A DNA stretch of 64,000 nucleotides. Source: Phoronis australis. Lineage: Eukaryota; Animalia; Phoronida. The position numbers and the translations under genes were made by a program. Shown piece after piece: positions 215 to 2,418 of the stretch. The notes under the pieces were generated by a model, which was not told the origin of the DNA, did not search any database, and was given only the letters and a program-made list of their open reading frames with translations. Position 1 is the stretch's first letter. Each line of letters starts with the position of its first letter. The stretch covers positions 465,404 through 529,403 of the forward strand of contig NMRA01000138.1 of NCBI GenBank assembly GCA_002633005.1, read 5' to 3'.

Positions 215-2418
215 CTGCAACTTTGTCCCCAAATGCATTAACCAACTCATCATTTGTTGTTTCAGTGTCTTCTACTGTATCATGTAATATAGCAGACTTT
301 AGGACGTCAGGGTCAGTTACTCCACCCTCAGTTGTAAGGATGTTGGCCACACCTAAAATGGAAAGCCTGATATAAAATCAAATTGTATGTTTTAAAGGTC
401 AACATCTGTGTGTGAAGAGAATTTATATGTAAAGTAATACATTGCCTTTAGACTTGATGGTGAGTTAGTGCTAATTAACCATTTATTCCCATAATAGAAT
501 ACCTCGCATGCAAACCATAGCTGCCAACTTTCCAAAACTGAAAATGGGATAATTGCACTGGCAGATCTAGGATGCAATTTTTTAGAGAAAGTGTTTGCAA
601 AAATCCCACAAACAGCATGCCGTAGTTATTGTTGACCATCTACCCACTTTCATCCAGAAACGCTCTTTGCCCCCAAAGGCAAAGCCCTTTATCCAAAACC
701 AAACAGGCTACTAGGGGATGCTGCAATGGTTGAATTTGCCCAAAAATCAACTTTCCTTCATCAATTGGTCCTCGTATTCTCATCCTCCCAAAACTGAGTA
801 CTGAAAACACCTTTTATCGATACCAAAATGGACATTTAGGGGTGCTGCAGAGGTCAAATCCATCTGAACATTGGGGCCAGCACAATGTTATGTGGCTACA
901 TATAAATCATCACGTATGTCAGCAAGTGGTACATGCTGTTGTGGGACGTGGGATGAAGCTTCAAAAACTGAAACAATCCTACTAAATGTAGACAGGACAG
1001 GTGGCAATTATATTGGTGTTGGCTTTAACACAGGGTTCTGTGTTCTGTAGATGATACAGAAGGAAAAACATTTCAAGGCAGAATAACAGAGCAGAGACAC
1101 CGAGCACCATCTGTTAGAGGAAGCACTTAGTAGGATAAGTCTTGCGGTGCACAACCACCTCAATTATTGCAGCAGAAGCTAGCTCCAATACACCGACACA
1201 AAATTAGCCAAGTCCTAAATCCTATTTTCCTGTTTCACCGAGGAATAAAAACACATTGTATGATTGACCTAATTTTCAGAGATAGACACCTAAATAGCCA
1301 GCCAGATAGTTGCACATGTAAACTGGCATCAAGGCCAAGGTTAGCACCTAAAGCATTACTGAGGCAAGTCGGACAAGAAAACTTAACCTAGCTCAGATTG
1401 TCAATTTTCTTTGTACTGACAGCATTACAGGCATTGATCGGATGTACCAGTCCCTGATTTAGAGAACCAGGCAATTACTGAATAGTAGGCCTGTTACTGA
1501 GTGTTATTCAGTGATTCAAACTAGTTCTCTAAAACAGGAATTGCTGCATTGTGTTGTAGATGTGCTTCCGGTGAATTATATGAGCCTCTGTTAGCTACTC
1601 AATAACGGGCAATTGCCTATTAGCTGAATGGTTAGCACGCTTGCCGGTTTTATGGGGGTCGCGGGTTCGATCCCCAGGTCAGGTAATCTCGGCTATTACT
1701 ACAAATGGCGTAGTCAGCAAACGGATGATCTACCGATGAAGCACTGCCAACTAGTACCCACGGACCTCGGGACAGCGCGCGTGGAAGGTTCCAAGAGTCA
1801 AGGACCTGTATGAGAGACGACCTTGTGTTCACCTGTATTGTGTTGGTAAAGGTACCAAGGGACGTTGATGACCTGTATGCGAGACATCCTGGTGTTCACC
1901 TTCCTGCCGCGTGCCCGTTCCGTAGGAAAGGGGGGAATGTTGTAGATGTGCTTCCGGTGAATTATATGAACCTCTGTTAGCTACTCGCTAACGGGCAATT
2001 GCCTATTAGCTGAATGGTTAGCATGCTTGCCGGTTTTATGGGGATCGGCGGTTCGATCCCCGGGTCGGGTAATCTCGGCTATTACTACAATTGCAACTCA
2101 ATTTTCAAGTCGAAAACTTTATTGGCAATTACAATAATGAATGTTAAAATAATTGTAAAATAAAATACTGAGCAAAGCACAAAAGTGGCCCACCATACAC
2201 AGTCGATTGTGGGTAAGTTCTGCAGAATCAAAGTATTCCTGTGAATACTTCGTGCCATGCCAACCCATGGACGGTGAACTAAGTTAACATTGAGCACACT
2301 GTTGCTCACCGATTGGGTGATTTATATAAGGGGTATTATCAGGATCTTTTCGTCTTTGGTTCTTGTGCTTTATTGCGGCAAAATTTATACACTTCAAAAA
2401 CGAACTTAAATCGGACAT
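215..2418 (-). CDS. HDDC3: HD-domain (p)ppGpp/NADPH phosphatase MESH1, 5' part; exons 2418-2310 and 352-215, continuing left out of the window
   Basis: Spliced translation [69 protein letters not shown]... carries the MESH1 motifs KHxxQRRKD, PYINHP and LHDTVEDT. The GT-AG intron is phase 1 on both sides. Confidence 0.95.
1552..2089 (+). mobile_element. TRIM (miniature non-autonomous LTR retrotransposon) with tRNA-like sequence inside its LTRs, in HDDC3 intron 1
   Basis: Two 152-bp direct repeats TG...CA (1552-1703, 1938-2089). 4-bp TSD ATTG (1548-1551, 2090-2093). PBS TGGCGTAGTCAGCA at 1706-1719 is complementary to a tRNA-Ser 3' end. Polypurine tract at 1924-1937. No coding capacity. Confidence 0.92.

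Follow-up and report, generated by a model that had tools for sequence, protein, structure and literature searches.

A gene-less unit of 538 bp with two LTRs, found in a 64-kb stretch of Phoronis australis DNA (hereafter, the window), raises the question of what kind of element it is and by which polymerase it might be copied, given that each LTR carries tRNA-type promoter boxes. In our assessment the unit is very probably a complete, moderately aged TRIM of the Helenus type, whose conserved boxes likely serve as a Pol III promoter. The machinery for its mobilisation is likely supplied in trans by a Gypsy element.

All parts of the element lie on the plus strand. The 5' LTR (1552-1703, 152 bp, TG...CA) and the 3' LTR (1938-2089, 152 bp) enclose a non-coding interior of 234 bp (1704-1937), and the whole is flanked by the TSD ATTG on the left (1548-1551) and on the right (2090-2093), a repeat of 4 bp that does not extend to 5 bp and for which a chance 4-mer match has a probability of about 0.005. 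The primer-binding site (PBS; 1706-1719) is offset from the 5' LTR by 2 nt and is complementary to the 3' end of tRNA-Ser at 13 of 14 positions, the comparison tRNA being human rather than that of the host (template in the available part of PMC3299991); at position 1716 the letter carried by the family majority (21,211 of 21,787 depth in DNA run X1) mends the mismatch and raises the agreement to 14/14. The polypurine tract (PPT; 1924-1937, 14/14 purines) abuts the 3' LTR. A 32-bp sequence is repeated within the interior (1803-1834 and 1870-1901, 88% identical); the RNA fold of the interior was nothing unusual (z +0.5), and the duplication is accordingly not credited with a structural function. 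The longest ATG-started ORF in the whole element measured 61 aa, and no Pfam match was obtained in three overlapping frames of it. The two LTRs aligned without gaps and differed by 9 substitutions (6 transitions and 3 transversions, K2P 0.062), in agreement with the earlier statement that this is not a brand-new insertion. That statement came from a sequence-only reading of the same DNA, which had also proposed the LTRs, the TSD, the tRNA-Ser PBS, the PPT, the 234-bp interior with its duplication and the A and B boxes, all of which were recovered where it had placed them.

Although no further copies were found within the 64-kb window, sequencing reads indicated an abundant family. Unique bins in DNA run X1 mostly had a depth of 46-67. 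Depth rose to 85,290 and 90,381 in the two main LTR bins, and to 17,344 and 24,616 in those of the interior; summed contig depth does not equal copy number, and these values were taken only to mean that copies are many and that LTRs exceed interiors. A query with a single LTR returned 1067 contigs, 355 of them extending past the LTR ends, with identities of at least 99% in 189, 95-99% in 229, 90-95% in 326 and below 90% in 323. The left boundary was sharp: 23 contigs departed from the element precisely at 1552, and the flanks that they entered were unrelated to one another (agreement 0.39). On the right one contig (2064-3400) crossed from the 3' LTR into unique flank with zero differences. A joint leading from 2092 back to 1708 points to units of LTR and interior arranged in tandem. 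These data bear on the notion that there is no LTR element here at all, and that a spacer flanked by two copies of a tRNA-SINE, or by an assembly duplication, only imitates one. Boxes of the tRNA type are indeed typical of SINEs in general; yet the TG...CA ends, the PBS 2 nt past the 5' LTR, the abutting PPT and the 4-bp TSD are at odds with such an origin, as is the lack of a poly(A) or simple-repeat tail, and the high-copy interior, the precise LTR boundaries and the presence of the 3' junction in an independent contig already refute it, so that it retains next to no probability.

Loose ends in the RNA reads gave an indication of a second insertion with its own TSD. A left flank ends in GAAG and a right flank opens with GAAG after a mutated CA, with similar read numbers (37-38 and 24-38); the pair is probably a second 4-bp TSD of the family, provided that, as we infer, both ends belong to a common locus. 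The sequence-only reading had regarded a single-copy unit without other TSD-flanked insertions as evidence against itself; what was found is a multi-copy family with this probable second TSD. As a separate observation, a well-expressed host transcript appears to contain the GAAG-flanked LTR copy, perhaps as a solo LTR within a UTR or an lncRNA, and this transcript may account for much of the antisense signal in RNA runs X6-X8.

The promoter boxes were located at equivalent positions in both LTRs. Box A lies at 1621-1631 in the 5' LTR and at 2007-2017 in the 3' LTR, box B at 1664-1674 and 2050-2060, and between them stands a run of four T (T4; 1648-1651 and 2034-2037), a candidate leaky Pol III terminator; these two are the only sense-strand runs of at least four T in the element. 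The combined A+B pattern matched twice in 64 kb, once per LTR. Among 100 dinucleotide shuffles of the window the mean was 0.06 matches, and when 20,000 LTRs were shuffled 0.025% contained the pattern; being far above the shuffles, the boxes were considered real. Box A and box B are separated by 43 nt in both LTRs, which is the usual spacing of class I tRNAs. The anticodon arm is thus of normal length and its stem is unpaired, which corrects the earlier description of a shortened anticodon arm; the D-arm and T-arm hairpins do form.

Could the segment then be a functional tRNA gene that the element has amplified? Besides the two arm hairpins, this idea could draw on ARAGORN, which called a tRNA at the 3' LTR when its thresholds were lowered (80-90%). 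At default settings, however, ARAGORN called none, and Rfam scans at E up to 10 yielded no tRNA, 5S or ribozyme match; the tRNA-His identity given by the low-threshold call was rejected. Against a working tRNA there are also the unpaired anticodon stem, folding at shuffle level (z -0.84 and -1.06 for the tRNA-like segment) and the variability of 13 of its 50 non-box positions. A functional tRNA gene is therefore highly improbable, and the tRNA-like part of the LTR is best regarded as what is left of a promoter, not as a working tRNA.

Conservation of the boxes within the family was evaluated by scoring as variable any LTR position with variation in at least 10% of reads (24 variant rows). On this basis 22 of 152 LTR positions varied. 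All 11 positions of box A and the whole of T4 stayed below the threshold, and box B had a single variable position among its 11; in these counts RNA reads are weighted towards few expressed loci. The sole varying position of box B is 2058 (C>T), a position that we take to be degenerate (Y) in tRNAs. The CpG of box B was invariant, whereas 7 of the 9 other CpGs varied. Relative to the rest of the LTR the difference did not reach significance (1/22 vs. 21/130, p 0.13 by Fisher's test), while within the tRNA-like segment it was nominally so (1/22 vs. 13/50, p 0.029), in a comparison picked after seeing the data. Selection acting on boxes A and B has only moderate support, and boxes that vary freely among copies, which the sequence-only reading had named as the outcome that would speak against it, were not what the family reads revealed.

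Transcription was examined in three raw RNA runs (X6, X7 and X8) from libraries that were stranded, as judged from two flanking genes, and whose RNA selection is unspecified, so that short Pol III RNAs may have been lost. No pile-up of read starts or ends was detected within the element in any of the three, which does not mean that it is silent. Over the LTR antisense reads exceeded sense reads in every run, and many continued into host flanks. Across the tRNA-like part the ratio of sense to antisense reads climbed from 0.46-0.50 to 0.88 in X6 and from 0.34-0.46 to 0.75 in X7, and was flat in X8 (0.26-0.35). The antisense excess, the reads running into host flanks and the lack of a pile-up together indicate that most of the LTR RNA signal is read-through from host transcripts.

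Such a signal is in keeping with an ordinary Pol II-dependent TRIM, in which the boxes are mere passengers from a captured tRNA-SINE fragment and the RNA arises from a start in U3 or from host read-through. The mainly antisense RNA, the read starts without pile-up, the p value of 0.13 for box conservation over the whole LTR and the location of T4 between the boxes all suit this reading, and the use of Pol III by Helenus elements had received no experimental validation as of Kojima 2024 (PMC10886601). Nevertheless, box A has no position varying at or above the 10% threshold and box B has kept its CpG where most others have decayed, the same box motifs recur among the Helenus families examined in the available portion of that source, and libraries of unspecified selection may simply miss short Pol III RNAs. 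A Pol II-dependent TRIM is accordingly regarded as a minority possibility, which retains some weight, and the Helenus-type TRIM with Pol III-driving boxes is preferred.

Under the preferred Helenus-type reading, a life cycle can be proposed from the arrangement of the parts. TFIIIC would bind the A and B boxes of the 5' LTR, and Pol III would start approximately 10-15 nt before box A (about 1607-1614), pass T4 at 1648-1651, transcribe the PBS, the interior and the PPT, and end after the first half of the 3' LTR, within which the second copy of T4 (2034-2037) offers the simplest stop. The resulting RNA would measure about 430 nt, with a terminal repeat of 30-45 nt. It would then be packaged by a Gypsy Gag/Pol particle, with host tRNA-Ser priming the minus strand and the PPT priming the plus strand, and the integrase would produce the 4-bp TSD. 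The weak point of this model is that one and the same T4 terminator has to be passed once and obeyed once; located between the boxes, it should end many transcripts early.

In order to place the element among known TRIMs, its features were compared with published descriptions. Elements that bear tRNA sequence have been described as Helenus (TRIMp3) by Kojima 2024 (Biology 13:119; PMC10886601), where Ajax denotes a nemertean TRIMp3 that bears 5S rRNA sequence and has 5-bp TSDs and a tRNA-Leu primer. The sequence-only reading had therefore applied the wrong name in recalling tRNA-bearing LTR elements as Ajax, while its expectation that only the member or the host would be new, and not the class itself, was sound, the kind having been published in 2024 as Helenus. 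Animal Helenus families range from 311 to 1263 bp and have 4-bp TSDs and PBSs common to Gypsy elements (PMC10886601), the same association by which a Gypsy-type partner had been proposed from the 4-bp TSD of the present copy. Like animal Helenus, the Phoronis element is shorter than 1 kb (538 bp), has two LTRs and no coding capacity, carries box A (TRGCY..YGG) and box B (GGTTC) in both LTRs, matched by motif, and has a tRNA 3'-end PBS directly after the 5' LTR that is unrelated to the tRNA-like part of the LTR itself. It also shares with them a PPT before the 3' LTR, a 4-bp TSD, high copy number, interspersed as well as tandem units and a non-functional tRNA fold. In many published Helenus LTRs, inspected by eye in the available part of the source, a T run follows box B, whereas here the only T run sits between the boxes. 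The element is unlike Ajax in having no 5S match in Rfam, a tRNA-type box B, a 4-bp TSD and a tRNA-Ser PBS, and both Ajax and the plant TRIM Cassandra carry box A, IE and box C derived from 5S rRNA in place of the tRNA A and B boxes. The animal TRIM biv-TRIM (Satovic 2019, PMC6934838) is of comparable build, yet, in the part of that article available, it is without a canonical PBS and no Pol III module in its LTR is described.

Comparison with the published consensus set was carried out with six short motifs and by eye, the latter leaving aside parts 2-4, 8 and 9 of Data S1, within the available extent of PMC10886601. Five of the six motifs, including the PBS, had no match in Data S1, and the sixth, the start of the LTR, matched Helenus-2_MyGa, whose first 9 LTR letters are the same as those of the Phoronis element. 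The PBS was also absent from the primer classes of Fig. S2, and Table S1 held no family with LTR and interior of 152 and 234 bp. Closest in size were the mytilid families Helenus-2_MyGa, 2_MoPh and 2_LimFor (LTR 141-156 bp, interior 226-268 bp), which are also primed by tRNA-Ser. These use another tRNA-Ser 3' end, live in mollusc hosts and had, by eye, no long sequence in common with the Phoronis element. Since its PBS occurs in no published consensus and no family of 152/234 bp is listed in Table S1, the family appears to be new, and on motifs and sizes, which set it apart from the published families, it may be described as a putative addition to the Helenus families that brings in a primer type not recorded among them. 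The host lineage is probably also new for Helenus. Later literature on Helenus or TRIMp3, in the parts available, yielded only papers that cite or name it (e.g. PMC12859917 and PMC13570524).

A further feature was observed just before box A of the 3' LTR, namely a hairpin of 9 bp (1973-1981/1987-1995) that overlaps a palindrome of 10 bp (1994-2003). The hairpin folds at -10.8 kcal/mol, a value without shuffle control, and its GGG alternatively pairs in the palindrome. The corresponding hairpin and GG..CC palindrome of the 5' LTR (1587-1617) has a stem weakened by substitutions at 1601-1602, which are absent from most family reads. Variable sites within the 3' copy (1973-2003) fell in the loop (1982 and 1986), at 1992 and 1993 in the 3' arm and at 1996 in the palindrome, with none in 1973-1981 or 1987-1991. 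The same layout before box A was recognised in approximately 50 of the 76 non-insect animal LTRs of Table S1 of PMC10886601, a count made by eye on unaligned sequences in the available part of the source and hence treated as a lead. It included LTRs of bivalves, among them all three mytilid Helenus-2 families, of both nemerteans, of the coelacanth and of the LTR-11_DR group of fish, whereas by eye it was not seen in the Lingula, wasp or fungal Helenus LTRs among those examined there. Neither "hairpin" nor "palindrom" occurs in the main text of that article. The layout suggests that the Phoronis family may be truly homologous with the Helenus lineage of aquatic animals. The fuller proposition, that Helenus is present here in a phylum outside the six published ones, in a non-molluscan lophotrochozoan with a branch to itself such as a phoronid or an annelid that diverged early, and that it has a hairpin-palindrome, not described before, in common with the Helenus elements of bivalves, nemerteans, the coelacanth and ostariophysan fish, is advanced tentatively, and we incline to doubt it as a whole.

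As regards its genomic surroundings, the TRIM lies antisense within a host intron (353-2309, minus strand, GT..AG) that comes after coding exon 1 of a gene with an HD domain, the exons being joined by contig 11 of X5. The domain was recognised by Pfam (HD_4, E 2e-5, below the curated cut-off), and the gene is presumably MESH1/HDDC3-like. It forms, around 2442-2706, a head-to-head pair with a plus-strand neighbour about 260 bp apart, which by motif we take to be HDGF/PWWP-like and whose coding part begins at approximately 2942; a 27-aa piece of the latter gave no Pfam match. The region between the two genes is likely a bidirectional promoter, approximately 350 bp from the TRIM. On the other side, a hairpin-shaped repeat (1430-1549) with 29-nt inverted arms (1442-1470 and 1521-1549), a fold z of -4.8 and high depth in X1 adjoins the left TSD; this repeat is probably MITE-like, with the TRIM having inserted at its end. 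Contig 8 of X1 (2064-3400) begins inside the 3' LTR and continues without a break into unique flank, with the depth normal for single-copy sequence. This suggests that the X1 individual has no empty allele at this locus. Two more short repeats of high depth in X1 were observed at 83-179 and 3307-3400, with 3331-3400 palindromic by self-BLAST.

Further along the window, a stop-free frame of 299 aa (7492-8391) lies in the region of the HDGF-like gene, and its second half gives the impression, and only that, of transposon-associated low-complexity proteins of the MADF/BESS type. Dispersed repeat units of about 450 bp form tandem-like clusters at 19580-20745, 23450-25010 and 59500-59650 (72-90% identity by self-BLAST), and minisatellites occur at 16495-17240, 37760-37990, 45620-45795 and 53810-54375. 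A frame at 61554-61841 (plus strand) resembles what we assume to be the start of an RCE1-like protease.

Two genes of the window were compared with those of other animals. For the TMED7-like protein (29926-33111, minus strand) identity to named proteins did not exceed 69% and stood at 64% with Lingula and 67% with Lineus; the TADA2B-like protein (42912-55452, plus strand; 7 matches in the exon search) was 53% identical to that of Lineus. Quick trees were built from 56 rows for TMED7, 55 of them chosen from 120 listed matches, and from 42 rows for TADA2B, comprising 41 chosen proteins, in both cases with redundant and most vertebrate rows excluded; Lingula was included in the TMED7 set only and Notospermus in neither tree. 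The TADA2B protein of the window was placed inside the lophotrochozoan group (SH-aLRT 98), outside molluscs (100) and outside Capitella/Ridgeia (94), beside Lineus and Owenia, the order among these being without resolution. The TMED7 tree likewise placed the protein of the window outside molluscs. By these comparisons the host is a lophotrochozoan other than a mollusc and is distinct from both Lineus and Lingula; Notospermus, which belongs to the family of Lineus, is an unlikely host as well.

The class to which the element is assigned was already known, and what the present locus mainly contributes is one more family, together with its primer type and its host. With an abundant family and public RNA runs at hand, the use of Pol III leads to sharp predictions, namely a start 10-15 nt before box A and a conserved T4 that is read through once and obeyed once. 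Through LTRs of this kind, present in large numbers, Pol III boxes become dispersed over introns and transcripts, and the number of predicted tRNA genes can come out too high. The hairpin module common to distant animal hosts, if confirmed by alignment, bears on whether Helenus had a single origin or several: most Helenus elements of aquatic animals would then represent one old or horizontally spreading lineage, as opposed to the repeated independent captures of SINEs that have been proposed, and the module itself would be a conserved cis-element for recognition by the Gypsy particle or for Pol III initiation.
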